DNA of 64,000 nt from a virus: IMG/VR virus record IMGVR_UViG_3300036820_000014, positions 14,259-78,258 of that record. One strand, written 5' to 3'. The notes under the pieces are model-generated. The model searched no databases. It saw only the letters and a list, made by a program, of their open reading frames with translations, and had not been told where the DNA came from. Of the stretch, positions 15,714-53,620 are shown one piece after another; the first letter of the stretch is position 1; each line of letters opens with the position of its first letter. The position numbers and the translations under genes are program-made.

Positions 15714-15979
15714 TTGCGTCTCCCCTTCGGTTGGCTAGCCGCCTGGCACCGCGGGTGCGTGCAGATGGCCTTGTCGTGGTCGATCTTCATATGGCCACCT
15801 GACCAGTAGTCCCAGTCCCCCGGCTTGCATATCTGGCACGGTCGTTCGAATGCATAGCCACGACCGTCTGTGGTCCGGACGGTTCCGACCGGGATCTCAT
15901 CAGTCCCACCGCACTCGGGACACGGCCCGGGCGGATCCATGCCCGAGGTGAGGATGAGCGGCGCTCCGTCGTCGGTCAC
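15710..15979 (-). CDS. zinc-binding hypothetical protein
   Basis: CPECGG...PCQIC. Confidence 0.55.
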   Translation of the reverse strand: MTDDGAPLILTSGMDPPGPCPECGGTDEIPVGTVRTTDGRGYAFERPCQICKPGDWDYWSGGHMKIDHDKAICTHPRCQAASQPKGRRK

Positions 15980-17273: not shown

Positions 17274-17385
17274 GCCATTGGACCTCCCGTCTCCGACACA
17301 CCGACTCGGTGACGGTACCTGCAAGACCCGGGTGCTTCCAGAGGTGTAACCGGTGGAAATGTTGCGGGCGACGTGTGGAAAACAC

Positions 17386-17664
17386 CTAGACATCCAGGGG
17401 AAGAGGGGGGACAAACTCGACGAATCCCAGGCGGGAGGCGATCTGGAGCGGTTGGGTCGGGTGCCGGTCGAAAAAACCTCTACAGACGGCGTTGTCTTTC
17501 CCGAGCGTTGAGTGACAGATGATGGCCGACTCGTTCGCCTTGGCATCGCTGACCATCTCGGCGAGCCGACCAGGGTTGAGGTGCATCAGGTTCCCAGGCC
17601 GGAATACACAAGTTGCACACAATTGTGCACAAACGTGGACACGTCCGTGCCGGTAGGCGTTCAC
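17386..17664 (-). CDS. Cys/His-rich hypothetical protein
   Basis: CATCVFRPG...ICH....AVCRGF. Confidence 0.65.
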   Translation of the reverse strand: MNAYRHGRVHVCAQLCATCVFRPGNLMHLNPGRLAEMVSDAKANESAIICHSTLGKDNAVCRGFFDRHPTQPLQIASRLGFVEFVPPLPLDV

Positions 17665-18221
17665 GTGCTTGGCTTGCCCATGACCGCGCGATATATCGCG
17701 CGGGCCCACCTGGCATCTCCGAGTGCGGTATGACGAGCGAACTGGTCGGGGTTCACTCCCACCAGACCGGACAGGTACTCCGAATCCCACGGAGGCTCCT
17801 CGATATGGTCGAACCCCCCCTGGGAAGACGAACCGGCGACAAAGCCCGCCGCCAGAGCCTCAACATCGATGAGGTGGTAATGCCACCGAGGCGACCGGCC
17901 GTGATGCCACATGAGCCGACGTAGGCGCTCCTCGTCGAAACTGGGGACGGCACCGACGATGTGAGTGCCGGACTCGATGTAAAGCCATAGGCGCGAGGCG
18001 GCATATGCGGGATGGACCGCAGCCCGAGCGTTATACCGATCATGAAAGCCGCTGATCTCAAGCGCCTTGGGGTGAGCGAGAGAGATGTCTCGGTCGGTCA
18101 CCTGGATTTGGAACTCCACCTCCTCGCCAGATGGCAGGATCAACCCCACTTCCCATACGGGGTTGAAGTCCGGATCCAGACCAAGGGTTTCGGTATCGAG
18201 GAAACAGACCGGTGCGCTCAC
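17661..18221 (-). CDS. DnaQ-like (DEDDh) 3'-5' exonuclease
   Basis: FLDTETLGL, GAVPSFD, HTALGDA. Confidence 0.9.
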   Translation of the reverse strand: MSAPVCFLDTETLGLDPDFNPVWEVGLILPSGEEVEFQIQVTDRDISLAHPKALEISGFHDRYNARAAVHPAYAASRLWLYIESGTHIVGAVPSFDEERLRRLMWHHGRSPRWHYHLIDVEALAAGFVAGSSSQGGFDHIEEPPWDSEYLSGLVGVNPDQFARHTALGDARWARAIYRAVMGKPST

Positions 18222-19903: not shown

Positions 19904-20535
19904 TTGCGGGTCTCCTTTTCCAGCTCGTAGCTGAACCTGTCCTCGGCCGGTTTGAAGAAGGTCACGCCAGGAACGGGCACCGGCTCGGCTCCCTCCTCGG
20001 CTGGCGGCAAGAGGACAGGGACGGCTTTCCCTTTCTCGCCGCCCTCGGTGGCCTCAGCGGCCATCTTGTCGGCCACTCGTGGCAGCTTCCCAAGCGCCTG
20101 GCGGTTGACATCGACGTTCACCCGTACCAACTCGTCATGGCCCGAAGTCAGCGCCCAGGCCTTGAACGCGTCCTCATCGGCCACAACGACCCGGCCGGGG
20201 AGTGCCTTCATCCGGACGGTGCCGTGAGGCAGCGACAGGGTCTTCACCTTGGCTTGCTTCATCTCAGGGCGGGCATAGGCCTCGACGATCGCTTCGATCC
20301 GTCTGAGTTGCGCCTCGGCCGCTTTGGTGCGGTCGGCCAGCCAGCCGTCCAGACGCTCACGTTCGGCGTCGTAGACGACCTTGACATCTCGGAGATCGGC
20401 CTGGAGCCGCATGCCCTTTCGGAGCAGCCAGTCCAGCTGCTCTCGGCTATTGGGCGGTGGGACATCCTCGCCCTCGGGAAGCGGATCCCCGATGAATTCA
20501 TCGAGGTCGCGCTCCCAGAAACCAGAGTCGCTCAC
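19900..20535 (-). CDS. Mu Gam-like / host-nuclease inhibitor protein
   Basis: Coiled coil followed by KTLSLPHGTV.M; upstream of SSAP; AAGGAGG RBS. Confidence 0.7.
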   Translation of the reverse strand: MSDSGFWERDLDEFIGDPLPEGEDVPPPNSREQLDWLLRKGMRLQADLRDVKVVYDAERERLDGWLADRTKAAEAQLRRIEAIVEAYARPEMKQAKVKTLSLPHGTVRMKALPGRVVVADEDAFKAWALTSGHDELVRVNVDVNRQALGKLPRVADKMAAEATEGGEKGKAVPVLLPPAEEGAEPVPVPGVTFFKPAEDRFSYELEKETRK

Positions 20536-20564
20536 GGTCCTCCTTGTCTGATGGGTTGGAGTTA

Positions 20565-20581
20565 CTAAAACGGAACTATAG
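20565..20581. promoter_or_regulatory. 17-bp operator copy 2 / minus-strand -10 TATAGT
   Basis: CTAAAA-CGGAA-CTATAG upstream of the gam-like gene. Confidence 0.7.
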
Positions 20582-20696
20582 CGACGGGTTGCGACATCGG
20601 CCCAGACGCGGCGAAGGCGGAGCACTGAGGCCCCGCCTTCTCGCCCGCACTGAATCTCCAACCCAAAATTGGGAACCAGTGGCGAAGTGGTGAAAG

Positions 20697-21068
20697 TTAG
20701 TCGCGTGCGGCCGTGGATGCCCGTTGGACAGCGGCCAGAAAAGCCGCCGCCGCTGGGGAATAGTCGCCGCTGACCAGATGGATGGGACGGGGCACTACAC
20801 CGAAGGGCCAGCCCAGGCGCTCGAACTGGATCACCACACCCATGAGGGCTGAGAGCATCCGACTCTCGGCATGGCTGAGGGTCGGCAATCCGTGGAGTTG
20901 CCACTCGGCGGCACGCTCCCATGCTCGCTGGAACGTGAACACATCGAGGTGGGTGAGTGCCTCGAAAGCATCACTGCCTCGGCGCTCACATTCTCGGCAT
21001 CCATCCACAAGGATCTGGCCCGGGTCGTAACCGGGCAGCGATGAGTGAGCAGCGTGTGTGCTCATCAT
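20697..21068 (-). CDS. hypothetical protein
   Basis: 123-aa ORF, DGCREC. Confidence 0.55.
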   Translation of the reverse strand: MMSTHAAHSSLPGYDPGQILVDGCRECERRGSDAFEALTHLDVFTFQRAWERAAEWQLHGLPTLSHAESRMLSALMGVVIQFERLGWPFGVVPRPIHLVSGDYSPAAAAFLAAVQRASTAARD

Positions 21069-25022: not shown

Positions 25023-25568
25023 TCAAACCGTGGTGTCGAGGCTGGCGAGCTGGACCTGGGCTCCGACAAGTACCGAACCACCTGTGCCAGTAGTGAGTGC
25101 TCCAGTCGATACCGTCACGTTCTCGGAATCGACCACCGTGAGTATCTGCGTGCCTGTTGCGAATATGCCGGGAGCAAAGAGGTACGAGCCAATGTCATCA
25201 TCGGTGAAGTCGCCCGAGTCCGACTCGAGCGTTAGGTCGCCCTGAGTCGTGACGGCGTCACTAAGTTGCCTCGAACCGGGTGGTTCGGACGGGACCGAGA
25301 TGTAGTAGCTCCGTACGGTGGCGCCGGAGATGTTCTCGACGACCTCGTACAAAGTCGCTGGCACCGTCTGGTCGTTGGCAACAAGCGACTGAGCAATGGC
25401 GCCATTGACGAGCTCGGCCGGGACCTTGGTCTGGGGAACAGACTCGCCGGTGTCCTCGTTGGTCATCGCCGCTGTGAGAGTGAATTCGACATCGCCATTG
25501 GGCGTCGAGCCGTCGGACCCGGTCCAGTCCCTCAAGACCATGATCGTCGTCAACTGGCGGAGAATCAC
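25023..25568 (-). CDS. putative virion protein carrying the shared S/T-rich domain
   Basis: Beta-rich N-terminus plus DAVTTQG...FTDDDIG...GTQI. Confidence 0.65.
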   Translation of the reverse strand: MILRQLTTIMVLRDWTGSDGSTPNGDVEFTLTAAMTNEDTGESVPQTKVPAELVNGAIAQSLVANDQTVPATLYEVVENISGATVRSYYISVPSEPPGSRQLSDAVTTQGDLTLESDSGDFTDDDIGSYLFAPGIFATGTQILTVVDSENVTVSTGALTTGTGGSVLVGAQVQLASLDTTV

Positions 25569-28293: not shown

Positions 28294-30218
28294 GATGCGT
28301 TGATGGTCATGAGACCGAGTGCTAACTCCTCGGTCGGGGGGTAGAGGGTTATCTGGGCGATCCTCATCAACTCGGGGCCGTAGGTCAGCCAGCCGTAGGA
28401 GAACCTCGCGGGGATCACATCACCAGTCGCCACCCGGCCCATGAGGCCCCGAGGCCCGTCCGCGCGCTGGCGAGCGGTGGGCAACGCCTGAGCTCGAAGC
28501 GTCTTTGTCAGGTAGGCCTCGGCCGTACCGGTCAACGTCGAGAGTGGCTGATCGGGGTAGGCCGATTGTGATTTGTCCAGGATGATTCCGCCGACCCCGA
28601 GGGTCTCGCCGGAAAGGCTCAACTGCGCCGGCTTCGTCATCACGACGGTTGTGGACGAACTCACGCTTTCGATAGTCGTGCCGATGCTGAGTGCACCGTG
28701 TCGGCTGTAGATCCCCTGGCCAATGTCATCGTCGGTGAAGTCGGCCGTGGCTGACGTGGCCGTAGTCGAGCCTTGGGTGAAGACCCCATCGAATACGACT
28801 CGACCGCCGAGGGAGCTCGGGAACGCTGCGTAACCGATCTCCGCTGCAGGACCGGTCTGGCCTTGACCGAGGACACGCTGAGCGGTGGCAACCTGGGAAC
28901 CGTCGACGCCACCTTCTAGGTCGGTCACATCGCCAAGGTCGATCTCGACCGGATAGTTATATTTCGTAGAGCCCTTGCCGGGGTTCGAGTACAGATGCAG
29001 CCATCGCTGGTGGCCGGTGGCATCCCATTGGAACTCGTAGTCGGCCACGCCGATCGATGGGAACTCCTGGAGCGCGTCGAGGATCCCCTGGTTGTCGGAA
29101 AACTGGTAGGCCCGCTGCAGGACAGTTCCCGTCAGACCGCCGGTGGTCGGGCCCCAAGCCATCGGGGACTTGCCACGGTTCGGGTCTTGGGCGTAATGGA
29201 TGATGAGACTGACGATGTCGAAGACGTCAGAACCGTCCGAAGCCGATGACACCGACTCGGGAACCGCTGCCGTGCATGCGTCCCAGACGACGCTCGTTGC
29301 CGGGCAGTAGAGACGGAAGTCGAGTGTCCAGGTCGTGAACGGTGGGACCTCGATCGTGGTTTCCAGCCGGGTCCAGATGCCCTTCGGCGTTGTATTCGTG
29401 ATCTCCTGGAAAGAGACCGCGACGAGGTTGTCGTCCGAATCGGTTGCCTGGAGATAGAGCCCTCGCTGTTGCCATGCCTGACCGTGCCAAGCCACGGCGG
29501 GGTCGATCCACACCCAGGCGGCGAAGTCGATCTCATCGCCGTCTCCGCCCGAGGTGAACGTAACCTCCTGGTGGAGGTAGACGTTGGCCTCGAGCGTCCC
29601 CTGCGCGAGCCGCGCGGCCTTCTTGCCGACCAGGACAACGCGCGTTTCCTCCTCGATGAAGATGTCCGACGTCGCTGACCAGTTCACGAGCGGGCCCAGC
29701 TCGAAGCTCGGGTTCAGGAGGTAGTTGGTGGTGACCGGTCCGAAAAGCAACTGTTGGAGAACCCATAGGAAGCCCTGGCACGTGAGGTGCACCTGGTCCT
29801 TGTCGAAGGTCGCGCTCACCGGCCAGCCCCACCAGATGAGCACCTGGTCTCGCCATATCTGAATCTCAGCAACGCCCGGGATTGACTCGATCGGCAAGAG
29901 CGAAGCGTGCGGATCGGTGATCGAGAAGTCGATGAGCGCTTGGCCGAGGTCGTCTAGGTCCCACTCGACCTGAGTCGGAACGGCCGTAGTGAGTTTGCCG
30001 GTAGCGATGCCGTACTTGTCACAGACGATGACCTCGTAATCGTGCAAGCCGCCGGGCCCCGGAACAGGGTTCGGCATTGGTGGCTCCGCGTAAGCGCTGA
30101 ACCATGCACGAGAGACGGCGCGTGAAAAGAACGCTGCGTCGGTCGGCGGCGGCGGCGGCGGCGTTGGGGCAAACCATGCGCGCGATACCGCACGTGAGAA
30201 GAAGGCCGCGTCGGTCAT
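28290..30218 (-). CDS. minor tail (hub/Tal-like) protein with CBM-like and shared S/T-rich domains
   Basis: IWRDQVLIWWG, NYLLNPSFE..W CBM-like insert; position after Dit. Confidence 0.75.
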   Translation of the reverse strand: MTDAAFFSRAVSRAWFAPTPPPPPPTDAAFFSRAVSRAWFSAYAEPPMPNPVPGPGGLHDYEVIVCDKYGIATGKLTTAVPTQVEWDLDDLGQALIDFSITDPHASLLPIESIPGVAEIQIWRDQVLIWWGWPVSATFDKDQVHLTCQGFLWVLQQLLFGPVTTNYLLNPSFELGPLVNWSATSDIFIEEETRVVLVGKKAARLAQGTLEANVYLHQEVTFTSGGDGDEIDFAAWVWIDPAVAWHGQAWQQRGLYLQATDSDDNLVAVSFQEITNTTPKGIWTRLETTIEVPPFTTWTLDFRLYCPATSVVWDACTAAVPESVSSASDGSDVFDIVSLIIHYAQDPNRGKSPMAWGPTTGGLTGTVLQRAYQFSDNQGILDALQEFPSIGVADYEFQWDATGHQRWLHLYSNPGKGSTKYNYPVEIDLGDVTDLEGGVDGSQVATAQRVLGQGQTGPAAEIGYAAFPSSLGGRVVFDGVFTQGSTTATSATADFTDDDIGQGIYSRHGALSIGTTIESVSSSTTVVMTKPAQLSLSGETLGVGGIILDKSQSAYPDQPLSTLTGTAEAYLTKTLRAQALPTARQRADGPRGLMGRVATGDVIPARFSYGWLTYGPELMRIAQITLYPPTEELALGLMTINAS

Positions 30219-39932: not shown

Positions 39933-41450
39933 TCATAGCGCCACCTCTTCTTCGGGCTTGCCCATTCCGAGAAGCTCGCGGAGAGCCCCGCAATTCGAGA
40001 CGTCCAACTCCAACTTCGCCCGGGTCACCGCGACGTACAGGAGCCGTAGCTCGCTGCTCAAGTCCTTAGGACGACCGTCAGGCCCTATGGATGGCATCAG
40101 GTCCTCGGCGAAGTCATCCGCCAGCCGTACCTTCGGGAACTCCAGGCCCTTGGCTTTGTGTGCCGTCGAGACGACCACGTCGGCCGAGGTGCGCCTGTCC
40201 ATGCGCCCGAGGGCATCAAGGATGACCTCGCACCCGAACTCCTCGACCAGCGACACCATGAGGCGCAATTCGTCACCTTGTGGGTCGATCCTGGAGTACT
40301 CGATCACTTCATCCCAAGAACGGAAACATGCCAATTCTGGGTGAGCGGTCCAGCCTCGTTCCATGAGGTCGGTCGCCGCCCTGGCAAACGATGCGACCTC
40401 GGCACCACCGCCCACCAGATAGACACCTCGGCCAGCCGCCTGCAGCCTGAGCACCGTCGTGACGGCCCCGGCGTTGGTCCTGGTAAGAATCGCCGATGGG
40501 TTCGGCATCCTTTCCACCAGCCGCGAGGACACCTCAGGGTTGCCCGAGAGCATGAACGGGGAATCGAGGCGACGCAGGAGCGTGTTGGCCACGGTGGCGA
40601 TCTCATCGCCGAAGCGGAAGGACTTGGTCAGGTAAGACCTGAGATCGGCCGGCACCCGCTCCAAGGCGTTGACCGCCCCACGCCACTCATAAATCTGCTG
40701 CTGGGAGTCACCCACGAATACAAGCTGGGTTCCCCTGGCCACCTGCTGCTCGACGATCGACAGCATGACCGGCGCGGCGTCCTGGGCCTCATCGAAGAGG
40801 ACGAAGTCTGCCGCCATCTTCGGGTCGTTCAGCTCGAACATCTTGAGGTAGTGATCGTGCTCGAACTTGAGCCGGCCGCCCGGGTCGCAGATGTCCGCCC
40901 AAGCGGCACCGAGGAACGGGGCGATGTGAGCGCGCACCGCGTTGTTGTTGTCGAACGACCGCTCGTGGGTGGTCTCGTTGGGCAGGTCGATCCCGTCGAT
41001 GTATGGCACGTGGTGGACGCCTGGGACCTTGTCGGTGGACTGGCAGAAGTTCCGGACCCCACGCATGACAAGCGAGGCCAGATAGCCCCGCTGGAGCACC
41101 TTGGACTCAGACCCATAGCGGATCACGAATTGCGTGATGCCCATCTGTCGGGCGATCTCGTCGGAACGGACCCGAGACGCACCGAGGCGGTGGCGATACC
41201 GCTGCCCGATCGCCCTCATGGCGAGAGAGTGGGCCGTCGAGGCGCGGACGTTGTCGGGGCAGCGACGTCCGAAGTCATCGACGATCGCCCGGTTGAACGC
41301 GACGTACTGGCCATGCCCTCTCGGTGCCGACTCGGCGCACATGATGAGTGTCGATGTCTTGCCCGTTCCGGCTCCCGCTTCGATCGCGAGACCCATCCCG
41401 GTTCCGAACGCCTCGACCGCCGCTACTTGCTCATCGGTTGGCTTGGGCAT
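39933..41450 (-). CDS. UvrD/REP-family (SF1) helicase
   Basis: AGAGTGKT, DEAQD, VGDSQQQIY.WRGA, SFRFG, TAHKAKGLEF, LLYVAVTRAK. Confidence 0.92.
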   Translation of the reverse strand: MPKPTDEQVAAVEAFGTGMGLAIEAGAGTGKTSTLIMCAESAPRGHGQYVAFNRAIVDDFGRRCPDNVRASTAHSLAMRAIGQRYRHRLGASRVRSDEIARQMGITQFVIRYGSESKVLQRGYLASLVMRGVRNFCQSTDKVPGVHHVPYIDGIDLPNETTHERSFDNNNAVRAHIAPFLGAAWADICDPGGRLKFEHDHYLKMFELNDPKMAADFVLFDEAQDAAPVMLSIVEQQVARGTQLVFVGDSQQQIYEWRGAVNALERVPADLRSYLTKSFRFGDEIATVANTLLRRLDSPFMLSGNPEVSSRLVERMPNPSAILTRTNAGAVTTVLRLQAAGRGVYLVGGGAEVASFARAATDLMERGWTAHPELACFRSWDEVIEYSRIDPQGDELRLMVSLVEEFGCEVILDALGRMDRRTSADVVVSTAHKAKGLEFPKVRLADDFAEDLMPSIGPDGRPKDLSSELRLLYVAVTRAKLELDVSNCGALRELLGMGKPEEEVAL

Positions 41451-42560: not shown

Positions 42561-43862
42561 TTAGTTCGGCAGGGCCGGTACCGCCGGCGGGACGATGGCC
42601 GGGAGTTGGCTCGGACACGCTGCATCGAAGGCGACACCCGTAGGTGTCTTGTTCCCGCAAGCGAGTGACGAGGACTTCCCCAGCGTCGCGAAGGGATAAC
42701 CCGTGCCACCGATCGAGGGCAACGGATCGGTGTTGCCCATCACCAGCACGTCCACCGTATTTAGGACGTTCACAGGTGACCGGTTAGGCCACGTGCTCGA
42801 GGCCGTCGATGTGTTGCCCGAGATCAGGACGTTGGCGTTCGCCGAACCGCCGAAGTTGTGAGGTGCCACGAAGATCCGGATCTGGGCACCAGTGACGAGC
42901 TGGAGGTCCGTGATGGCCACCCGCTGGAGCTCGGTACCGGTATACGCAGCGAACAGGTAGCCGTAGTTCTGACCGATGATCTTGTCGTGGGTGATGTCGA
43001 TATCCGTGTCGATTGCCGCCGCATAAGTGACGTCGGTCTCGTCATCGAACATGGTCAGTCCGGCACCTTGGAAGGTGTCCTGGCTGATGAGCACGCGGTG
43101 GGCACCGTTCGTCTCGGAGATCCCCATCCGGCCGGCGTAGGAGAACCTCGAGTGCTCGATCGTGACGTCCGTGCTCGGCATCCCACCACCACCGCCGGGA
43201 GCCTCGTGTAGCCCCGAGATGGTTACGAAGTCGCCCCATGGACCGTGCTCGGTGTCGTCCAAAAGGAGGACGCGCTGAGCCCCGTCGATCGAGATGAAGG
43301 AGTCCGGCTGAAGCGCCGGGGTATCGCCTGACTTAGACGAGTGCGAGCCGGTGATTGTGAGGTCTTTGATGGTGAGGTCACACCCGCCATCGAGCGTGAG
43401 TAGCTCGACCTGAGACGTGATGCCCGAATAGAGATCGTTCATATATGCCGTCGAGCCGCAGTACGGAGCGACAGACGGGTTGTCACGGCCACCAACCACC
43501 GTGTCGGGGACGGTCGTCGAGGTCTCTCGAATCGTCGCTCCGTTGCCGTCCAGGTCGATATTCCTGGCTCCTCGCCACCACCAGGAGCCGTTGACCAGGT
43601 AGCAGGCACCCTTCTTGAGTTTGGCGATGGAGTCGTGGCCCGGCGTTCCATCCCGGACGCTCATCAACCATGCTCCGAGACTGGCCGTGTCATCGACCTT
43701 GCAGGTGGTGTCGATCGTCTTAGGTGGGGTGAAAGTGGTCGGTGCCTTGATGGTCACTTTCGGCTTCGGTGCCGGCGAGCTGACGGCTAAGCCGATCCCG
43801 ACACCAGCACCGGCCAAGACTACGGCGAGGGCTCCAATAAGTAGCTTGCGGCGGCGAGTCAC
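42561..43862 (-). CDS. membrane-anchored right-handed beta-helix (pectin-lyase-like) protein
   Basis: RRRKLL+TM; LDGNGATI, WGDFVTI, GRMGIS parallel beta-helix motifs. Confidence 0.7.
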   Translation of the reverse strand: MTRRRKLLIGALAVVLAGAGVGIGLAVSSPAPKPKVTIKAPTTFTPPKTIDTTCKVDDTASLGAWLMSVRDGTPGHDSIAKLKKGACYLVNGSWWWRGARNIDLDGNGATIRETSTTVPDTVVGGRDNPSVAPYCGSTAYMNDLYSGITSQVELLTLDGGCDLTIKDLTITGSHSSKSGDTPALQPDSFISIDGAQRVLLLDDTEHGPWGDFVTISGLHEAPGGGGGMPSTDVTIEHSRFSYAGRMGISETNGAHRVLISQDTFQGAGLTMFDDETDVTYAAAIDTDIDITHDKIIGQNYGYLFAAYTGTELQRVAITDLQLVTGAQIRIFVAPHNFGGSANANVLISGNTSTASSTWPNRSPVNVLNTVDVLVMGNTDPLPSIGGTGYPFATLGKSSSLACGNKTPTGVAFDAACPSQLPAIVPPAVPALPN

Positions 43863-44617: not shown

Positions 44618-45472
44618 TCACTGGCCGTATGGCATCGAACGGCCCTGGACCGAGTTCGGAGCAAGGAACGACGCTCGCCGGCGTAGCCCGTTGGGATTCT
44701 TCGCCTTCAGGAAGGCCGCGCACCAAGGGAGCGGGATGATGTTGTCGCGCAGGTGCGCGATCGAGTCGGCCACCTGGACGCTCACGCCCTCGGATGCCAT
44801 CGACACGACCCGGTTGGAAAGCACCGACAGGTCGCTTCCTGAGAACGACAGGGCCAACTCGATGGTCAACTCGACGCAGGCCGCCCACCCGGATGCCGGG
44901 ACCGGTCGGCCCCACTCGTAGTCGATCAGCCAGGTCCCCGGATAGCTGAGCGGAAGCTGAAGTTGCTGCTCCCACGGCCACGCTGACGCGCCCTGGGAGG
45001 CGGGGTTGATGTTGCGGACCAGGCGTCTTCGGTCGTAGAGGGTGTAGTCGGCACCCTCTACGAGCTCGACGCCGTTCACAAGCACCTGGTTGATCCGGGT
45101 GACCGGTCCCTGGAGGACGACCTCTGCGAGGTCCTGGCCGTTGTTCCACCAACCCATCCCCGGTGCCGTCCAGGCCCAGCCGGCAGCGAAGCCCCACGCC
45201 GAGCCGTAGCCCGACATCGATGAGTAGGGATAGAGGAAGCTCTGGTTGGCGTATGACGAGTTGATTGTGGTCGGCCGAATCCGAGAGCGCCCAGTGCGGT
45301 ACTGGCGGCCGCTGAAGCAGTAGAGCAGGTCAGTGGCCACGCCGATCATCCGCCCGATGTCGATGTCTTGGACCTTGGCTAGCCGTCTCGTCGGGATGTC
45401 GTCCTCGTTGCACCATGGCGAGAGCCACGTCTCGGCTGCTGGCGCTACTGTGGCGATGGCTGGGGCACCCAT
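44618..45472 (-). CDS. head-to-tail adaptor
   Basis: ATDLLY.FSGRQY, L.GPV..I..V..NG, WP..Q.L, YEWG.PVP..G..A..EL. Confidence 0.8.
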   Translation of the reverse strand: MGAPAIATVAPAAETWLSPWCNEDDIPTRRLAKVQDIDIGRMIGVATDLLYCFSGRQYRTGRSRIRPTTINSSYANQSFLYPYSSMSGYGSAWGFAAGWAWTAPGMGWWNNGQDLAEVVLQGPVTRINQVLVNGVELVEGADYTLYDRRRLVRNINPASQGASAWPWEQQLQLPLSYPGTWLIDYEWGRPVPASGWAACVELTIELALSFSGSDLSVLSNRVVSMASEGVSVQVADSIAHLRDNIIPLPWCAAFLKAKNPNGLRRRASFLAPNSVQGRSMPYGQ

Positions 45473-46113
45473 CAGGAGGCCTGCTCGTAGGTGATCCCGG
45501 TGTCTGAGGGGAAGGTGATCGTGCCGGCTCCGGTCAAGACGATCGTGCCGTCCGGTTGGGCAACGAACTGGCCCGAGCTCGATGGCGTAATCGGATCCCC
45601 ACCCTCTGTCGCTGAGATGTTGACAAGGTCGGCACTCACGACCGTGACCACCCAATACTGAGTATCTGTCGTGAACCCCGTCGGGATCCCTGTGTTCGAG
45701 AGAGCAGGATCTTCGTAAAGCCGGATCACGTCGTTCACGCTGAGGCCGTGTGCGGGAATGATGATGTCGTCATCGGTGCCGACGGCGCAGCACCCCATCG
45801 GTTGACCGGCCAAAGGCCAGCCTGCGAGGAAGGTGCCACCCGTCTGAGCTGTCCAGAAGCCGACCCAGGGGATCGTCTCCGCTCCAGCGACATCGATCGA
45901 GAGATCGCCCGAATTGTTCTCGGTGCCGTCCGTGCCACTGAAGGTGATCTGTTGGCGACCATCTGCTCCAGTGCCGCTCGTTATCTCGTTCGCGCCCGTT
46001 CCACCCGGACTCCCTGAGTGAAGCGACAGCCAGACCTCAGAGATGTCATAGCTGGTGTTCTCACAAAGCGCCTGAGCGAGCCCCTGTAGTTGTGCAGTGG
46101 TCAGCCCCATCAA
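45472..46113 (-). CDS. virion structural protein with FCCH-like inserted domain
   Basis: WLSLHSG.PG..GANE...RQ.ITF, GFW.A.TGG.FL; insert AHGL.VND.I..TQYWV. Confidence 0.65.
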   Translation of the reverse strand: MMGLTTAQLQGLAQALCENTSYDISEVWLSLHSGSPGGTGANEITSGTGADGRQQITFSGTDGTENNSGDLSIDVAGAETIPWVGFWTAQTGGTFLAGWPLAGQPMGCCAVGTDDDIIIPAHGLSVNDVIRLYEDPALSNTGIPTGFTTDTQYWVVTVVSADLVNISATEGGDPITPSSSGQFVAQPDGTIVLTGAGTITFPSDTGITYEQAS

Positions 46114-46126
46114 AATCCCCTATCCG

Positions 46127-46624
46127 TCACTCGCTTGATGATAAGGCTCCGACCATGAACCATCCGGGACATTGAGGGTCGGCCATGAGTTCAACGACGG
46201 TGAGCCCCACCTCGCTTGCGAGCGACCGGAGCGCACCCGCTGAGAATCGCCAGTAATCCGGCGGATTGTGCACCGGGAACGCTCCCCTCTGAGCGTCGTA
46301 TCCGCGACAGGTGAGTATGAGCGTGCCGTTGTATCGCAGGAGTCGAGCGATCTCCTTGAACGTTTCCCATGGTCGAGGATCGTGCTCGAGCATCTCGGTC
46401 GTCACCACGACATCAAATGATCCGGTGGAGAACGGGATGATGCCCGGCTCAACGACGAAGTCGACCCCTGGTCCTTGGGCTAGATCGACCCCCATGTAGT
46501 CGCCGGTAAAGAAGCGTCTTATCGACCCGTTTACGTCTGCCGACCCGATCTCTAATACCGACCGATGTGACAAGGAAAACTGATCGACCTTTCTTTCCAC
46601 CCACTCCATGACCGATTCATGCAC
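46127..46624 (-). CDS. class I SAM-dependent methyltransferase (type 11-like)
   Basis: VLEIGSADVNG, GVDLAQGPGVD, FDVVVTTEMLEH, H..PDYWRF. Confidence 0.85.
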   Translation of the reverse strand: MHESVMEWVERKVDQFSLSHRSVLEIGSADVNGSIRRFFTGDYMGVDLAQGPGVDFVVEPGIIPFSTGSFDVVVTTEMLEHDPRPWETFKEIARLLRYNGTLILTCRGYDAQRGAFPVHNPPDYWRFSAGALRSLASEVGLTVVELMADPQCPGWFMVGALSSSE

Positions 46625-46820
46625 GGGCTCGGCGTTGGACAGAGCCGGTCATCCCCCGGCTGTCCTCCATCACGCCGCCAGCTTGTCGAAGACCATTTCA
46701 CCATCGACTACCAGGCTGAGGTCTCCGTCGACGCCGACGAAGGCTGTCCAGTTGCACTCATCGGGACTGATCCAACCCTGGTAACGATCCGCTGGCCATT
46801 GACAGCCCGGATTGGACTCC

Positions 46821-48701
46821 TCAAGCTCGGCTCGCTGCTCGTCGGTCGGCACGGGATACCTCCCCACGCTGATGTTGCACATTCGCTTCACCTCCTTTCG
46901 TGCTTTTGGTTGCGACTTTTTCATAGCCCACACGGGCCTTTTCCTGCTCAGCAAACCAATCGACGTTGTTCGCGTCGAACGTGGCATGACCATCGTGGTG
47001 GACATAGCACCCGTCAGCGATGACCAGGTCGCCGAAGGCCTTCAGCTTCCGGCAGAGGTCGTCGTCTTCATAGCCGCCCATCGAGTCGTTGAACTTCCGG
47101 AAGCGCCCGACCTTGTTGAACATCTCAGCCTCGACCGCCAGGCAGAAGCCGACGAGACGATCCGTCTTACGACTACGACCCTGGTGAGACTTGAGCCATT
47201 CGGCGGAGAACTCCTCGAGGTCATCGATCTCCGGCGCCTCCTCGACAATTTGCGGCCCGCTCACGCATCCCGCTCGAGCGCCTGATGCGACAACGGTCTC
47301 GGAGCGAAGGTGACCGATCAGCTCGTTTAGCCAGCCCTCGGTGACGATGACGTCGTTGTTCAAGAACACCAGCGTCGGGTTGGTAGCCGCCTCTGCCCCG
47401 GCGTTGCAGGCTGCGGCGAACCCGCGGTTGGGCGCGGCCCAGCCGATCTCCTTTAGTCGCTTGTCCTTGAATCGCCACTGAACTGAACAGATCGCGCCAA
47501 CACCAGCTGTTTTATCTGTCGAACCGTCATTGACAAGAACAACCTCGTCATCGGTGTTGAGTGTCGGGAGTAGCGCGTCGAGGCACCGTTCGGTCATGGC
47601 CCAGGCGTTCCACACCGGCACGATTACAGAGACGGCAGGACGACCCCAGTGGGCGCGCATCTTCGAGAGATCGGCTAGGAGTTGACCATCGACCGCGTAG
47701 CCTTCCGCCGCCTTGGCTCCGAGTTCCAGTTCCTCGAGCGACCTATCGAGATCCCCGAGCCGCTCGAAAGCGACGGCGAGGTAGTGGTGAAACCGCCACG
47801 GCAACGAGTCGTCTCGGAGGTAGTGGGTAACAGGCGGACACGCGAGCCCACGCTCGGCGGCTTCGATCACATCGACATGGCGCTTGAGGTCCGATGACCA
47901 CGCGGCCTTGGCGAACCATGCTCCGGGCTCGTCGGGTGCCTCGACGGTTCCCTGGTGAACCCAGAAGAGCACGTCCTCGTCTTGAGCTCCCGTCTTCGAG
48001 CTGGCCATCGCCAGCCATCGACACGTCGCGGCCCGCTCGTTCGGCGTTCCTGTCGTGAGGTCCATCGCCCGTTGGCCTGTTCTGAGGACCTCGAGCCAGT
48101 CCTGACGTAGCCCGTACTCTCGGCTCAGGTAGGCCCACATGCGGAAATCACTGGGCTGCTCCGAGACGGCGAGCTCCAAGAGGCCGAGGTATTGAGTCCT
48201 CGGCTTTGAGTTGTCAGGCCGATGCTTGATGAGCGCACCTTCGATGAAGACAGCATGCTCCTCTCGCATGGGATAGGGCACCGCGACCTCGTGACACGGT
48301 GCGACCCACCGGTAGCCCTTGCGGCCGTGGATCCGATTGACCTGCCACCGCGCGCCAGTGTCGATCTCGATGAAGCCTCGCTCGAACGGACCTGCCTTTT
48401 CCCACGCACGCCGGACGGCCTTGATGAATCCAGGAGCGAGGACCTCGTCCATGTCGAGCGAGATGCACAGGTCCACGTCGACCGGCAGAAGCGCCAGTGC
48501 AGCGTTCCTGGCGTCATCGAACCGCCAGGGGTCGATCGAGATGGACGAGACGGTGACACCGACATTCCTTAGCGCCTTGACCGTTCCATCCGTCGAGCCG
48601 GTATCAGCGACGAACCGGAAGTCAGCTTGCGCGCACGAGGTCGCCCACCGTCTCGCGTGAGCGACCTCGTTGTAAGCAACTGTATAGACCGCGATCTTCA
48701 C
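46821..48701 (-). CDS. GT2-TPR-GT2 glycosyltransferase
   Basis: NE...ADTGSTDGT..FDDARNAAL..LDMDE..HE; TPR-like helices; second GT2 VSVIVPVWN..NDGSTD..NRGFAAACN..FLNND..EDDDLC. Confidence 0.9.
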   Translation of the reverse strand: MKIAVYTVAYNEVAHARRWATSCAQADFRFVADTGSTDGTVKALRNVGVTVSSISIDPWRFDDARNAALALLPVDVDLCISLDMDEVLAPGFIKAVRRAWEKAGPFERGFIEIDTGARWQVNRIHGRKGYRWVAPCHEVAVPYPMREEHAVFIEGALIKHRPDNSKPRTQYLGLLELAVSEQPSDFRMWAYLSREYGLRQDWLEVLRTGQRAMDLTTGTPNERAATCRWLAMASSKTGAQDEDVLFWVHQGTVEAPDEPGAWFAKAAWSSDLKRHVDVIEAAERGLACPPVTHYLRDDSLPWRFHHYLAVAFERLGDLDRSLEELELGAKAAEGYAVDGQLLADLSKMRAHWGRPAVSVIVPVWNAWAMTERCLDALLPTLNTDDEVVLVNDGSTDKTAGVGAICSVQWRFKDKRLKEIGWAAPNRGFAAACNAGAEAATNPTLVFLNNDVIVTEGWLNELIGHLRSETVVASGARAGCVSGPQIVEEAPEIDDLEEFSAEWLKSHQGRSRKTDRLVGFCLAVEAEMFNKVGRFRKFNDSMGGYEDDDLCRKLKAFGDLVIADGCYVHHDGHATFDANNVDWFAEQEKARVGYEKVATKSTKGGEANVQHQRGEVSRADRRAASRA

Positions 48702-48714
48702 GGCCTGGATTCTG

Positions 48715-48909
48715 TCAGGCGCCAGTCGGCCCCGTCGGCCCCGTCGGGCCAGTGACACCTGTTCCGCCTGTCCCACCCGTGCCACCGGTTGGACCGGTAG
48801 CGCCAGCGGGCGTGGCAAAGACGAAGGCAGTGCCATTCCAGGTCGGGACCTGACCGGTCAGAGGGGGAGGACCGGTGACAACTGGCGGATTCGGGAACTC
48901 GGTAGCCAT
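48715..48909 (-). CDS. collagen-like (G-X-T repeat) mini-protein
   Basis: AAGGAGA RBS; GATGPTGGTGGTGGTGVTGPTGPTGPTGA C-terminus. Confidence 0.8.
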   Translation of the reverse strand: MATEFPNPPVVTGPPPLTGQVPTWNGTAFVFATPAGATGPTGGTGGTGGTGVTGPTGPTGPTGA

Positions 48910-48944: not shown

Positions 48945-49898
48945 TTAGGCGACGGGCAGCGTCTGGTAGCCAGGCTGGAGCGGGGACGGAAGCTCGAAGT
49001 CGCAAAGCTGGTCGCAGAACGCCGTGGTATCGACGGGAGCGCCGACGGCCGGCATCGCCGAGGTGCGCCAGTCATCGAGAGGCCCGGTTCCAAAGTTCGG
49101 GTTCTCGATCGCCCACCCTCGGAACATCGGAGTCTCTTCTTTGTCTTCCTTCGACCAACCGTCCCAGAAGAGGAACGCACGGAAGACGCCGACTCTGAGC
49201 CACGCTGAACCCGGAATCGTGGCCGTGCCGGCCGAAGGGTACGGCGTGGTGCCCTGGTAACCGGTGCCTCGGACGATGAGCCTCGACCAGACCTCGATCG
49301 ACACTCCGTTCGGACACGGCACGGTGAGCAGATGCGGGAACGCATACCCGATCGTCGAGACGGGTTGGGCACCCAAGGTGATCGAGACGCCGGTCAAGCT
49401 TGTGGTCGACACGGCGCTAACACGCACCTCTGTGGCCGAGATGTACTCCGAGACGTAGGCCCCGGTCGCGACGCCAGTGCCGGTGACGGAGCGGCCGACG
49501 TCAGTGTCCACAAAGGATGCGTCGGCGGCCGAGGTGATGATGTTCGATTCGAATGCCACGACGCCATCGGCGAAGGTGCGCCCCGCCGTGCCGGAAGCCG
49601 TGAGGATCTGGCCACCGCCGAGGAGTTCCTGCTGTTCGGGATCCCAGTCACCGAGGCTGAGGTTCACGTCCCACCGCTTGTAGCGGTCGCAGTCCTTGTA
49701 ACTGATGACCGGGACGCCGCACGCGGACTTCGGAGTGATCTCGACGCCGTCTTCCATGACGGGCTTGCACTCGAGCTTCACGAAGTTTCGGTCGTCTTGA
49801 ACCATGGCAGTCGATGAGCTGACGATCGAGCCGTCGGCCGCGAGGCGCGAGAATCGAACGGCACAACCCTGGACTGCTACGGGTCCGTTAGTGGCCAT
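48945..49898 (-). CDS. major tail (tube) protein
   Basis: RFSRL..DG, SACG, IGYA.P, GVSIEVWS, ENPNFG.GP..DW. Confidence 0.8.
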   Translation of the reverse strand: MATNGPVAVQGCAVRFSRLAADGSIVSSSTAMVQDDRNFVKLECKPVMEDGVEITPKSACGVPVISYKDCDRYKRWDVNLSLGDWDPEQQELLGGGQILTASGTAGRTFADGVVAFESNIITSAADASFVDTDVGRSVTGTGVATGAYVSEYISATEVRVSAVSTTSLTGVSITLGAQPVSTIGYAFPHLLTVPCPNGVSIEVWSRLIVRGTGYQGTTPYPSAGTATIPGSAWLRVGVFRAFLFWDGWSKEDKEETPMFRGWAIENPNFGTGPLDDWRTSAMPAVGAPVDTTAFCDQLCDFELPSPLQPGYQTLPVA

Positions 49899-49907
49899 GT
49901 TTCCTCC

Positions 49908-51251
49908 CTAACTGCTGGTTGTGTCGACGAGAACGGTGGCACGCAAAAGCTGATTGCTGATGAACGCATTGGGACGCTCGGCTCTCACTTCAGCGAGGTT
50001 GTCAACCGGGACGTCGGGGGACATCTGACGAAGATCGTTGGGGTAATGCGAGACGTCGCCACGAAGCCGAAAGATCGCGTCGGTGGCGTACGCCCATTGC
50101 TGAGGAGCACCACCAGCTCGCCCGCCCACGCCAGCAACGCTGTAGGTGATACCGGTGCCGTCGTCGGTTGCTGGTTGGGAGAGCACGATCTCGGTGCCGG
50201 AGTTGACCTGCAAGACATAGGTACCGGCAGGGATCCGCCCAGAGTCATCGGTCTCGGTGATGACTCTGCCGATGTCGAGGTTCGTGAAGTTTCCGTCTAC
50301 AGAGTCGAACGTGGTCGATCCGCTTGTGGTGACACCGTCATCGGCTCCGTGAGCCTCAGAGTCAGGCCCAAGACCCCCATAACCGAAGCCGGCAACGATC
50401 AAGTTGTGGTTGACCGTGTAAATCTTCCCGTCGGTATCCCGAATGAACGGGTACACGGCCATCCACCTCTGGACCAGATACGGGGTCGCGTGAATGAACC
50501 CCGTCCCGGCGTCAGATTCGGCGATGGCCTGATCCAGTGCTGCGAGAGCTTGACCGAGCGCGACGGCTGTTCCGAGAATGGTGCCGGGCGCCGGATCAGG
50601 AGATGGGAAGGCGCTGATCGTGCGGCGAGGTGAGGAGGTCGGCGTCAACGGAGAGGCCGTCAGGTGGTAGTTCGTTGGAACGGCTAAGCCACTCCAGAAC
50701 TCCTGCTCGCACTGCCAAGCCTCGTGCTTTCGCATGGCGCGCTCGGCACGCATGGCCCTTGAGATGTAGTCCGTGAACGGGTAGCCGAAGACCGATCGAC
50801 TGTCCCGGCCAATAGCCATGAAGGGGTCGTACCAAAACGTCGCATCTTGGTTAGAACCCGATGCCTTCGGCTGCTCTGATCCCCCGTAAGGCGAGATGAC
50901 CTCGCATGCCTCGGCGTTGCCCAACTCAGGCAGATAGACGAACCCCTGGGTCCAGCGTTCGATCTCGGCGGCCGTCTCGTTGTACTCGGCGACCACATCG
51001 AGCGCCGCCTCATATTCAGAACGCAGCTGCTCCAGATTCGCCTCCGCCGACGTCGCGTCCGGCGCGGCCTCTGCCAACAACTTGAGCCGCATCTCGGCTG
51101 ACGCCGCCGTCTCTGCGGCGACCCTGCGGTCCTCGGCCTGGCGCTCGTTGTCGACCAAGACCTCGGTCATCATCAGCAACGAGAGAGGGGGATCGGTGAG
51201 GGGCGGCGCGGCGACTACAGCGTCGATACCTGACGTCGCAGTGATCGTCAC
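49908..51251 (-). CDS. minor capsid / head-associated protein
   Basis: Directly after MCP; ALAALDQAIA...G.IHATP, VAG.GY, WAYAT. Confidence 0.6.
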   Translation of the reverse strand: MTITATSGIDAVVAAPPLTDPPLSLLMMTEVLVDNERQAEDRRVAAETAASAEMRLKLLAEAAPDATSAEANLEQLRSEYEAALDVVAEYNETAAEIERWTQGFVYLPELGNAEACEVISPYGGSEQPKASGSNQDATFWYDPFMAIGRDSRSVFGYPFTDYISRAMRAERAMRKHEAWQCEQEFWSGLAVPTNYHLTASPLTPTSSPRRTISAFPSPDPAPGTILGTAVALGQALAALDQAIAESDAGTGFIHATPYLVQRWMAVYPFIRDTDGKIYTVNHNLIVAGFGYGGLGPDSEAHGADDGVTTSGSTTFDSVDGNFTNLDIGRVITETDDSGRIPAGTYVLQVNSGTEIVLSQPATDDGTGITYSVAGVGGRAGGAPQQWAYATDAIFRLRGDVSHYPNDLRQMSPDVPVDNLAEVRAERPNAFISNQLLRATVLVDTTSS

Positions 51252-51319: not shown

Positions 51320-53620
51320 CTACAGACCGTTGCCAGCGCCCAAGACGACGGCCGTGGCAGCCCCGTAGGTGCCGTCAGCGGCGACGGTGTGGACGCAACG
51401 GAAGGAGCGAGCTCCGACGTACGCCGGGGTTTCCCAGCCTTCCTCGAAGTTCCTGAACCGGTTCTGCGAGTTCAGGAACGAGTCGCGGACAAGGCCGAGG
51501 TTCAGCTCGCCGGTCGTCAGACCGATCCACGTGCCCTCACCCCACAGGTAGGTGACGACCTTGGTGCGGAACGACGTGGACGAGCCTTGACCCGGGTAGT
51601 CAGGGATGGCAACCGGAGTGGCGTTGTTGACGCCTCCCGTGTTGACCGCACCCGAGCCGATCGCTGCGAACAACTGGGAGATGTCCGAGGGCCCGTCCTG
51701 GTACCACGAAGGCAAGACAGCGATGTTCCGGAAGAACGCCACGAGCTCCTCGTCGCTCAAGCCCCAGTCGCTCGGCGAGCCGCCGAGGAACGTGGAGATG
51801 AGGTCGCCTCGCATCGCGTTCAAGGCCCACGCCGGGATCAGCAACCGGAGAACGGCGCCCGGGTCCATGCGCTGGTCCTGGCGGTACACCGCCGCCATGT
51901 GCTCGATCTGGGCGAGCAACTGGCGAGCCGTGCCGAAGGTCTTTGACGCGGTGAGCAGCGTCGACCAACCAGTGATGTAGTCGAGGCATGCCGTCTCGGC
52001 CACCCTGGCCTGCAACGCGTTCGCGATGAGGATGTTCAGCTCGACCTGCTCCGGGAAGGTGCGAGCCGTGAGGTTCGCGTACTGGAGCGAGGCATAGGTG
52101 GAGAACACGTCGTGCTCGGCCTGGGTGCCGAGAGGCACGTCGTAGGTGTACTTGAGCGTGTTCGGAGGGCCGGCCGCGTCTTGGGCAGCCGTGACGAGTC
52201 CGACCGCCGGGCCCAGGTTGTACGGGTTGCGGTTCCGGATGGCGAAGGGGACCGCGGTGACCGAGCCGCCCGTCGATGCCTGCGACAACGTGATCGAGGT
52301 TGTCGATCCCACCGCTTCGATGATCGTGCCGGCGGGGATGTTGCTCGTCGAGCCTGACGACGAAGCCCCGACTTGGACGATCGGCGAGCCGACGTCAGAG
52401 GCGAGGAAGGTTGCGGTGGCAGACGTGAAGGTGGTCGAGTTGTTGGTGACGCCGTCGGGGTACTCGCCAGGGATCGTGGCCGCAGACAGCGTGCCGATCG
52501 ATGCCGGCAGCACCAAGCGGATACCACCACGGTCGGCCACCATCGAAGGCATGGAGTCGAGGACCGGGCGAGCCGCCTGCCCTAGGAACAGCTGCGGGTA
52601 GTACGGGTCGACCGGTGCCGAAAGACCACCGGATGCGGTGATCGCATCGATGTCGTCGCAAACAATCCCGCCTCGACCGATCGGCTTCTCTTCGCCCGTC
52701 CAAGGGTCGATACCCATGGCGTCCGGACCGATGGTCTGCTGCAGAAACTCACGCACCGCCTGGGACGAGGCTTCGCGGAAGGGACGAAGATCGCGGTTGG
52801 CGGGCGGCTGAGGAGCGCGCACCGTTGCCACAACAACCTTCTCTTCCACCGTCGAGGTGGACTTGCCGAGATTGTCGATCCGCTGGCGGGTCGCTTCGAC
52901 CAGCTCGGAGCGGCTGGCGAACTGGTGGCCGGTCGGGAAGATCCCGTTGTCTGGAGCGGCGGTGAGGATACCGAGCTCACCGTGCCGGCGACCGTTGGCT
53001 CCCTGCTCGCCAGGGGCTCTGTCGGCCGGGCGGTAGTCGCCGATGCCACGAGCCCTGCGAGGAGATGCGGGCACCGCGATCCGCTCCATGGCGGCGGTGA
53101 AGGCCTCCGCGATGGGCGCCACGCCAGCGGTGACCGCTGCGGCGATCGCCTCAGGAGAAACCGACTGGCCAATGACGGACGCCTCGAGGACCGTGGGTGC
53201 GGGGATGTTGCCAAGAGCCTCGAGAAGCGCTAGCGCCGTGGCGCGGTCTTCGTCAGTCGAAGTTGTCGGAGAAGGTGCTGGTGTAGGAACGGGCACCGGG
53301 TCGGTCGTACCGCCGGGCTCGGTCCCGCCTTCGGTGCCACCTTCATCAGCGGCGGCGAGGCGAGAGGCCACCTCGTTGAGCAGGGCAGCGGCGTGAGCCG
53401 CAATCTCGGTGGCGCGAGCTACATCGATCGTGTCGGGGTTCTCACGCATGGTCGCCGCTTCGGCGGACAAGGCGTCATACATCGCCGACAGGTCGGCGTC
53501 AGAGATGCCGGCGAGGTTGCCATCGGCGGGCCATTCAGGGAGACCCTCAGCGACGAGCGCGATCAGATCGCCATCGGCGTCATACGTGGCGAACCGGTTG
53601 TTGGAGCGGGACAGGGACAC
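51320..53620 (-). CDS. major capsid protein (with N-terminal scaffold-like region)
   Basis: ITASGG.SAP, RGGIR, N.TARTFPEQV, LNLGLVRDS.LN..N.F..F.E..E. Confidence 0.85.
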   Translation of the reverse strand: MSLSRSNNRFATYDADGDLIALVAEGLPEWPADGNLAGISDADLSAMYDALSAEAATMRENPDTIDVARATEIAAHAAALLNEVASRLAAADEGGTEGGTEPGGTTDPVPVPTPAPSPTTSTDEDRATALALLEALGNIPAPTVLEASVIGQSVSPEAIAAAVTAGVAPIAEAFTAAMERIAVPASPRRARGIGDYRPADRAPGEQGANGRRHGELGILTAAPDNGIFPTGHQFASRSELVEATRQRIDNLGKSTSTVEEKVVVATVRAPQPPANRDLRPFREASSQAVREFLQQTIGPDAMGIDPWTGEEKPIGRGGIVCDDIDAITASGGLSAPVDPYYPQLFLGQAARPVLDSMPSMVADRGGIRLVLPASIGTLSAATIPGEYPDGVTNNSTTFTSATATFLASDVGSPIVQVGASSSGSTSNIPAGTIIEAVGSTTSITLSQASTGGSVTAVPFAIRNRNPYNLGPAVGLVTAAQDAAGPPNTLKYTYDVPLGTQAEHDVFSTYASLQYANLTARTFPEQVELNILIANALQARVAETACLDYITGWSTLLTASKTFGTARQLLAQIEHMAAVYRQDQRMDPGAVLRLLIPAWALNAMRGDLISTFLGGSPSDWGLSDEELVAFFRNIAVLPSWYQDGPSDISQLFAAIGSGAVNTGGVNNATPVAIPDYPGQGSSTSFRTKVVTYLWGEGTWIGLTTGELNLGLVRDSFLNSQNRFRNFEEGWETPAYVGARSFRCVHTVAADGTYGAATAVVLGAGNGL

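Follow-up and report, generated by a model that had tools for sequence, protein, structure and literature searches.

A collagen-like mini-protein and a GT2-TPR-GT2 enzyme form a probable glycosylation cassette in a metagenomic phage genome

We analyzed a 64,000-nucleotide stretch of DNA from a soil phage (the window; positions 14,259 to 78,258 of virus record IMGVR_UViG_3300036820_000014) and, within it, a minus-strand gene cassette at positions 46127 to 48909 that encodes a 64-amino-acid (aa) collagen-like mini-protein, a 626-aa enzyme in which a tetratricopeptide repeat (TPR)-like domain lies between two glycosyltransferase family 2 (GT2) domains, and a small S-adenosylmethionine (SAM)-dependent methyltransferase. 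Our favored reading, to which we assign a probability of about 0.6, is that the enzyme O-glycosylates threonines of the collagen-like protein in the cytoplasm and that the genes constitute a late-expressed module in a variable slot of the structural operon. The cassette probably serves only the collagen protein and not the whole virus particle. An initial annotation, made from the letters alone, had named as substrates both the collagen peptide and a Ser/Thr-rich domain found in several virion proteins. The collagen mini-protein emerged as the most likely substrate, since a collagen-then-enzyme gene pair is conserved in phages, metagenomes, and Bacillota and since the two genes are present or absent together within the phage lineage.

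Results

We sampled 111 enzyme-encoding loci (30 from IMG/VR, one from a GenBank phage, and 80 from metagenomes) and counted a pair where a GX[T/S] collagen open reading frame (ORF) on the same strand ended no more than 3 kb before the enzyme, using loci in which the sequence extended 3 kb or more upstream. Of the 111 loci, 71 contained a collagen-like ORF rich in GX[T/S], and 54 of the 65 informative viral and metagenome loci had one upstream on the same strand, some ending within about 20 bp of the enzyme. In the cultured Actinomycetia phage DSL-LC01, two collagen genes precede the homologue by ~3 kb. The controls gave 2 of 55 for downstream positions and 2 of 79 for phage loci that were fetched via a tail-tube homologue and lack the enzyme (Fisher p = 7e-26 for pairing versus controls, uncorrected for relatedness). 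Pairing was kept after the enzymes were clustered, in 7 of 12 informative clusters at 70% identity and in 5 of 7 at 55% identity, and threonine occupied 77% of the Y positions in paired collagen ORFs. In a scan of 185,579 species genomes, at least 578 relatives were recovered, the majority of them from Bacilli and Clostridia. Of the 80 cellular genome loci kept, 33 had a collagen ORF, which in most ended immediately ahead of the enzyme gene; among the 19 cellular collagen ORFs that we read, several showed features typical of BclA, namely a Cys-rich N terminus, G-P-T repeats, and a C-terminal domain. Two tandem GT2-TPR paralogues were present in many genomes of Clostridia and Bacilli (loci L116, L117, L118, L123, L124, L130, L147, and L153), and other Bacillota loci had a single GT2-TPR copy directly after a BclA-like collagen gene.

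Closer relatives of the phage allowed gene content to be compared at a single position. Relatives fetched via the tail-tube gene share a backbone of capsid protein, 447-aa protein, tail-tube protein, variable slot, and adaptor, with a slot that was almost empty in L195, short in L194 and L197, and filled by several fiber-like genes in L193 (L193:11217-15628, compared with 45472-48909 in the window). The collagen gene and the GT2-TPR enzyme gene were both present in the window, L196, and L033/L034, and both were absent from L193, L194, L195, L197, and L264, in which enzyme, collagen, and methyltransferase genes were looked for within 10 kb and none was found. Judging by this gene content, the collagen gene and the enzyme are evidently gained and lost together within the lineage. 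Among full-length homologues of the enzyme, the closest (46% identity) is encoded in L033/L034; the head-module synteny is the same there, and the enzyme gene comes after genes for a G-X-T collagen protein of 726 aa and for a protein with the shared Ser/Thr-rich domain.

The complete 80-kb genome L196 has two mini-collagens of 79 and 76 aa at the position of the window copy (53% and 44% identical to it, respectively), followed by a sugar island of approximately 9 kb at 11466-20807. The island encodes a Glyco_tranf_2_5 enzyme, two SAM methyltransferases, FdtA (E = 1.5e-51), a DegT aminotransferase (E = 6.5e-106), a FemAB/GNAT-like protein, and a 1057-aa enzyme with a GT2 domain ahead of a GT2-TPR unit. 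This gene content points to a 3-amino-3,6-dideoxyhexose as the product and recalls the Bacillus spore pathway for anthrose. The island contains three GT2-type domains in total and a 434-aa protein without a Pfam match.

The mini-protein gene (48715..48909, minus strand) was read directly and has an AAGGAGA ribosome-binding site 6 nt before its ATG. After the first ~35 residues, which form an N-terminal 'FPNPP...G...W' anchor motif, the protein runs through nine unbroken G-X-T triplets (GAT GPT GGT GGT GGT GVT GPT GPT GPT GA) to its C terminus and has no C-terminal domain. A 64-aa protein ending in (G-X-T)9 after the tail-tube gene is thus present as first described. Pfam Collagen (PF01391) did not reach E = 0.01 on the window mini-protein, and the 79-aa L196 homologue matched the same family at E = 6.7e-7. 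The 'FPNPP...G...W' motif also opens fiber-like proteins in the same slot of L193 and is probably a common docking peptide. One of these L193 proteins is 733 aa long and contains short sequence motifs that are repeated.

The enzyme gene (46821-48701, minus strand) has a GTG start. Its ORF is open from 48836, where a start would produce an overlap of ~120 nt with the mini-protein gene; we placed the start at the GTG at 48701, 13 nt past the mini-protein stop, because all full-length homologues begin with M[RK]IAVYT. Fusion of the mini-protein to the enzyme by read-through or frameshift was rejected, as the frames differ and homologous enzymes share this start. PF00535 matched the enzyme in two stretches at 91.6 bits (cut-off, 23.3); in a six-frame search of the genome, the second domain scored 76 bits and the first 20.4 bits. 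The first half is spanned by phrog_13126. An AlphaFold2 (AF2) model (predicted local distance difference test score [pLDDT], 88.7) resolved three minus-strand segments: a GT-A domain at residues 1-165 (48207..48701), also assigned to GT2 from motifs, GmaR and SunS profile matches, and Foldseek; nine TPR-like helices at residues 171-351 (47649..48191), taken from the AF2 secondary structure and TPR profile matches; and a second GT-A (GT2) domain at residues 357-600 (46902..47633), matched by PF00535 (E = 6.8e-26) and PF13641. Pfam, the AF2 model, and the TPR profile matches together confirmed the two-domain glycosyltransferase with TPR-like helices that had been read from the letters. The first-domain motifs D33-T-G-S-x-D38, D83-x-D85-E86, and H137-E138 were invariant or nearly so among 14 to 32 family members, and the second-domain motifs N-x-G-S-x-D, F-L-N-x-D, and a D-D-D run were invariant in four full-length homologues. 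The second GT2 domain also had a PDB sequence match to GalT1/CgT (5hea, 2.4e-10). The GT2-TPR-GT2 fusion recurred in homologues P0002, P0004, and P0005, and in L196 the two kinds of GT2 domain are fused in reverse order, so that the fusion is seen in either order.

The first half of the enzyme is a member of a very large GT2-TPR family of ~355 aa, many members of which are fused to further domains; stand-alone relatives were 344-370 aa long. A word-indexed search gave 1,059 matches; in a full scan, 1,553 cluster representatives passed E = 1e-30 and 10,391 passed E = 1e-10, with members in freshwater actinophage-like contigs, soil phages, and Bacillota genome loci. When the enzyme was compared by tblastn with 50,697 phage records at E = 1e-5, 9 records matched, none of them from mycobacteriophages. 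A family profile built from 14 diverse members was searched against the PDB, where its catalytic half matched GmaR (E = 2.2e-9), SunS (2.4e-9), and ThuS (2.8e-8) and its helical half matched consensus TPR proteins at E = 1e-24 to 6e-50; the profile also weakly matched the peptide-binding TPR domain of collagen prolyl 4-hydroxylase (about 4e-4). The best folds for the AF2 model in Foldseek were SunS (5.6e-16) and ThuS (6e-15), with TM-scores of 0.56-0.63 normalized to the target and fold identity of 14-17%, followed by the two-domain chondroitin polymerase K4CP, polypeptide GalNAc-transferases, and CgT/GalT1. Since the nearest solved relatives by both profile and fold are GmaR, SunS, and ThuS, the GT-TPR half is closest to protein and peptide glycosyltransferases, in agreement with the type originally assigned to the enzyme.

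The methyltransferase gene (46127..46624, minus strand) encodes a class I SAM-dependent enzyme of 165 aa, as first annotated; the product exceeded the cut-offs of two Pfam families, PF13489 (39.8 bits; cut-off, 27) and PF08241 (37.9 bits; cut-off, 21.2), and matched phrog_32762 at 8.6e-22. A 'LEIGSADVNG' sequence was read as the SAM-binding motif, and several O-methyltransferases, UbiG and Mtf2 included, were among the sub-threshold NCBIfam matches. An unrelated viral contig, L006, encodes a GT2-TPR protein of 575 aa whose alignment with the window enzyme continues beyond the TPR domain, to about residue 470 of 626. Its gene lies downstream of a 1081-aa collagen gene and directly ahead of genes for a methyltransferase homologue, a dioxygenase, and another methyltransferase. 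The dioxygenase (L006:12125-13021; PhyH-type Fe(II)/2-oxoglutarate family, E = 8.8e-18) could be a collagen hydroxylase. Between the enzyme and methyltransferase genes of the window lies a 70-aa ORF (46670..46882, minus strand) that was absent from the initial annotation; preceded by a strong GAAAGGAGG ribosome-binding site, it shares ~60 nt with the 3' end of the enzyme gene, and searches of PHROGs and NCBIfam returned no match to it. The enzyme has an extra 27-aa C-terminal tail that its homologues lack and that falls in this overlap.

These findings fit a scheme in which the TPR groove of the GT-A plus TPR half would bind the G-X-T stretch of the mini-protein and GT-A domain 1 would move a first sugar from a host nucleotide-sugar onto its threonines. 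The fused second GT2 domain would then add one or more further sugars, and the methyltransferase would O-methylate the glycan. The N-terminal 'FPNPP' motif would anchor the mini-protein to the virion, yielding short glycan-bearing whiskers. In this scheme, we infer the acceptor residue, the order of domain action, the methyltransferase target, and virion attachment. The proposal that domain 1 starts the glycan, domain 2 extends it, and the methyltransferase caps it is plausible in light of the recurrent fusions and the neighboring genes in L006 and L196, from which the three roles are drawn. The description of the system as self-contained did not hold: a search of the complete genome for epimerase/dehydratase, NTP-transferase, and DegT aminotransferase families gave no match, so the donor sugars must come from the host.

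Discussion

The closest described counterpart of the cassette is the SgtA/BclA3 system of Clostridioides difficile spores, a likeness that we draw from architecture, gene context, and the published account (PMC7157674). SgtA (358 aa; GT-A at 1-260 and TPR at 262-358) adjoins bclA3 and in vitro transfers beta-O-GlcNAc onto threonines, and also serines, of G-P-T peptides; its proven activity is cytoplasmic O-glycosylation of the threonines in the repeats (PMC7157674). Residues 1-351 of the window enzyme likewise form a GT-A domain and then a TPR domain, the ~355-aa stand-alone relatives are similar in size to SgtA, and a collagen-like G-X-T gene lies directly beside the enzyme gene (13 nt apart in the window). 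Unlike the SgtA/BclA3 system, the cassette is phage-encoded, places the collagen gene first and then the enzyme, fuses a second GT2 domain, and is followed by a methyltransferase; unlike BclA3, its substrate would be only 64 aa and lacks the BclA C-terminal domain. The glycocin S-glycosyltransferases SunS and ThuS (PDB 7msn, 7msp, and 7msk) and the flagellin O-GlcNAc transferase GmaR of Listeria (PDB 22ao) also combine a GT-A domain with a helical or TPR-like part and have protein or peptide targets, but their substrates are a bacteriocin cysteine or flagellin. In contrast to glycocin systems, no precursor, transporter, or flagellin gene lies near the cassette, whose neighbors are tail-tube, collagen, methyltransferase, and head fiber genes.

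The collagen repeats of Bacillus BclA, of G-P-T type, carry an O-linked rhamnose-anthrose oligosaccharide that ends in a methylated, amino-modified deoxysugar. L196 resembles this system in having FdtA, a DegT aminotransferase, and methyltransferases beside mini-collagens; the differences are that BclA belongs to a spore surface rather than a virus and that the window cassette has no sugar-nucleotide genes. Work by Freeman and colleagues in 2023 reportedly found that Che8-type mycobacteriophage glycosyltransferases modify the phages' own structural proteins before assembly; these enzymes are said to be encoded near the genome end and to act on capsid and tail-tube proteins. Unlike the Che8 type, the window enzyme has no mycobacteriophage match at the E value used, and its likely acceptor is a dedicated collagen-like protein.

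Several points weigh against glycosylation of the collagen protein by this enzyme. Gene pairing is no proof of an enzyme-substrate relation, and the pairing is not universal, since the cultured Pseudomonas phage PaBG has no annotated collagen gene near its homologue; L003 and L007 are also family members without a nearby collagen gene. The N terminus of SgtA, as read from a cloning primer, resembles a neighboring GT2-TPR subfamily more than it does the window enzyme. Nine triplets are few for a stable triple helix. The methyltransferase is weakly linked to the family, because a jackhmmer search of 191 enzyme-carrying loci found a homologue next to a family member only in L006, and the roles that we infer for it and for the second GT2 domain draw on few cases. 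Finally, the phage is a metagenomic record, known here from its sequence.

Another candidate acceptor is the Ser/Thr-rich domain. This ~80-aa domain is real: five minus-strand copies (52235-52486, 50121-50360, 49359-49598, 28578-28817, and 25050-25289), inserted in five virion proteins (capsid, tail-tube, and tail proteins), matched its own profile at E = 2e-24 to 2e-34, and its Ser plus Thr content is 25-35%, against 14% for the proteome. The enzyme could glycosylate it in addition to, or mainly in place of, the collagen protein and so give the virion a glycan coat, as in mycobacteriophage Che8. The copies sit on exposed virion proteins, one of them in the gene just upstream of the cassette; the enzyme-bearing L033 has the domain beside its collagen gene; SgtA accepts Ser besides Thr (PMC7157674); and Che8-type phages glycosylate capsid proteins, according to PMC11256854. 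We nevertheless consider this unlikely, as the domain occurs independently of the GT2-TPR gene. Capsid, 447-aa-like, and tail-tube proteins contain it in L193, L194, L195, L197, and L264, the five relatives without enzyme or collagen genes. Whole-record searches of the complete genomes G002 and G004 found no GT2-TPR gene; G002 has one unrelated GT2 ORF, and G004, complete by CheckV and included among these five relatives, matched neither the GT2-TPR profile nor PF00535 or PF00534. Conversely, no copy of the domain was found in the other 109 enzyme-carrying loci. Its profile matched the 'Decoration protein' of Arthrobacter phage Bridgette (8eci chain 1; E = 4.8e-12, with 33% identity in the fold match), and this homology to a capsid decoration protein of known structure explains why the domain is there without any need for glycosylation. 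The domain had no Pfam match even at E = 1, and one copy gave no tblastn match among phages, possibly through the low-complexity filter. Its presence in enzyme-free relatives and the 8eci match indicate a decoration-type module that is independent of the cassette. Occurrence of the domain apart from GT genes was the outcome that the initial annotation had itself named as refuting, and by that criterion a substrate role for the domain is unsupported and improbable. The Bridgette protein is a separate 126-aa protein; in the window, its homologue has apparently become an insert of the capsid, tail-tube, and tail proteins.

The enzymes might instead act on a non-protein acceptor, such as a host cell-wall glycopolymer, a lipid-linked sugar in superinfection exclusion, or phage DNA, with the collagen gene an unrelated fiber gene. 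PHROGs assigns the family to the category 'moron, auxiliary metabolic gene and host takeover'; the second domain has weak similarity to the GtrB-like phrog_841 (E = 1e-6) and, far below cut-off, to NCBIfam polysaccharide synthases; and the GC drop across the cassette suggests acquired cargo. Papers on freshwater actinophages assume such a role, one of them listing both collagen and glycosyltransferase genes and reading the latter as related to DNA or the cell wall (PMC10202952). We judge this quite unlikely, given that the enzyme has no membrane segment, its TPR domain would be left unexplained, its nearest solved GT-TPR relatives are all protein or peptide glycosyltransferases, and the collagen pairing is directional and often closer than 100 bp across genomes of 22-70% GC, including BclA-type loci. 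The position of the cassette inside a late structural operon also counts against a non-protein acceptor. Even less probable, in our view, is that the mini-collagen is a decayed remnant or structural adaptor and that the true substrate is a host protein or another virion fiber, for example the downstream Gp80-like head fiber, which is 22% Ser plus Thr. The collagen proteins of relatives are indeed far longer (726 aa in L033 and 285-1081 aa elsewhere), and the window copy escapes Pfam Collagen; yet the mini form is conserved in the paralogues of L196, the window gene has a strong ribosome-binding site and an intact frame, and there is no room for lost mini-collagen sequence because the enzyme starts within 13 nt of the stop codon.

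Glycosylation of collagen threonines by the GT2-TPR enzyme therefore remains our preferred reading. The SgtA/BclA3 system and mycobacteriophage virion glycosylation are already known, and our literature search turned up no paper that connects phage collagen-like proteins with GT2-TPR enzymes. To our knowledge, the only phages so far demonstrated to glycosylate their own particles are a few mycobacteriophages. More tentatively, and at somewhat less than even odds, a G-X-T collagen-like fiber with a dedicated GT2-TPR enzyme may be a widespread glycosylation module of tailed phages, in which case the fiber would here have been cut to a 64-aa anchor plus nine triplets, with the methylated glycan, rather than a protein domain, as its working 'head'. 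If the pairing is functional, glycosylated collagen-like fibers would be a frequent feature of phages that infect abundant freshwater and soil bacteria, many phage glycosyltransferases annotated as DNA- or host-modifying would instead sugar-coat the phages' own fibers, and phage fibers would be linked to the BclA/SgtA spore-surface system. With a 64-aa substrate and one fused enzyme, the cassette is a very small test case for how TPR glycosyltransferases recognize collagen-like repeats and is also suited to making defined glycopeptides. Our analysis also separates the decoration-type domain spread over the virion from the glycosylation cassette, two elements that had previously been merged.

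Genomic context

The window covers 64 kb of a 78,258-bp virus record that has direct terminal repeats and was judged complete; its GC content is 60-66%. The nearest GenBank relatives of the major capsid protein are in Gordonia, Arthrobacter, and Microbacterium phages, making an actinobacterial host likely by capsid relatedness. The minus-strand structural order runs from the portal region through a 766-aa major capsid protein (phrog_777), a 447-aa protein, and a 317-aa protein to the cassette and continues with a 213-aa Gp80-like head fiber (PF23140) and a head-tail adaptor (phrog_783); farther downstream are a helicase, chaperone-like genes, a putative tape measure protein of 1393 aa, and Dit. 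The cassette genes are tightly packed inside this late structural operon, and a promoter and terminator scan across the cassette found none above chance, so that no internal promoter or terminator was detected. A near-identity search of the cassette DNA against GenBank phages gave zero matches, and transmembrane segments and signal peptides were looked for in the enzyme, methyltransferase, and mini-protein without any being found. GC content was 0.57-0.60 over 46100-47150, which covers the 3' part of the enzyme gene, the small ORF, and the methyltransferase gene, versus 0.63-0.66 in the flanks; this composition fits a recent gain of that part of the cassette.

The 317-aa protein immediately upstream (48945..49898, minus strand) lies outside the cassette and carries a copy of the shared domain at residues 101-180. 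By sequence it gave a weak match to phrog_792 (E = 8e-6). Its AF2 model (pLDDT, 83.7) matched siphophage tail tube proteins at a Foldseek probability of 1.0 (8xkn_B, 8rk3_f, 9n71_A, 8vhx_G, and 6xgr_A), with TM-scores that are modest (0.35-0.45) because of the inserted domain. The tail tube label given to this neighbor was thus borne out as a fold assignment. A homologue without the insert, gp76 of Gordonia phage Phendrix, is encoded by an unnamed gene ahead of the adaptor. The location of a tail-tube-fold gene between the capsid genes and the head-tail adaptor is an unusual order that is kept in L193-L197, and ahead of the tape measure gene we could identify no further clear tail tube gene.

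Two further genes in the structural region drew our attention. A DNA helicase gene (39933-41450, minus strand; phrog_1967, E = 3e-86) is flanked by head-tail joining genes on one side and by genes for the tail chaperone and tape measure on the other. A 433-aa protein (42561-43862, minus strand), encoded between this helicase and the head-tail genes, has an N-terminal membrane anchor (Kyte-Doolittle 19-residue window value of 2.4 at residue 7) and a sequence that, read by eye, is beta-helix-like; it might be a depolymerase or a lysis-related protein.

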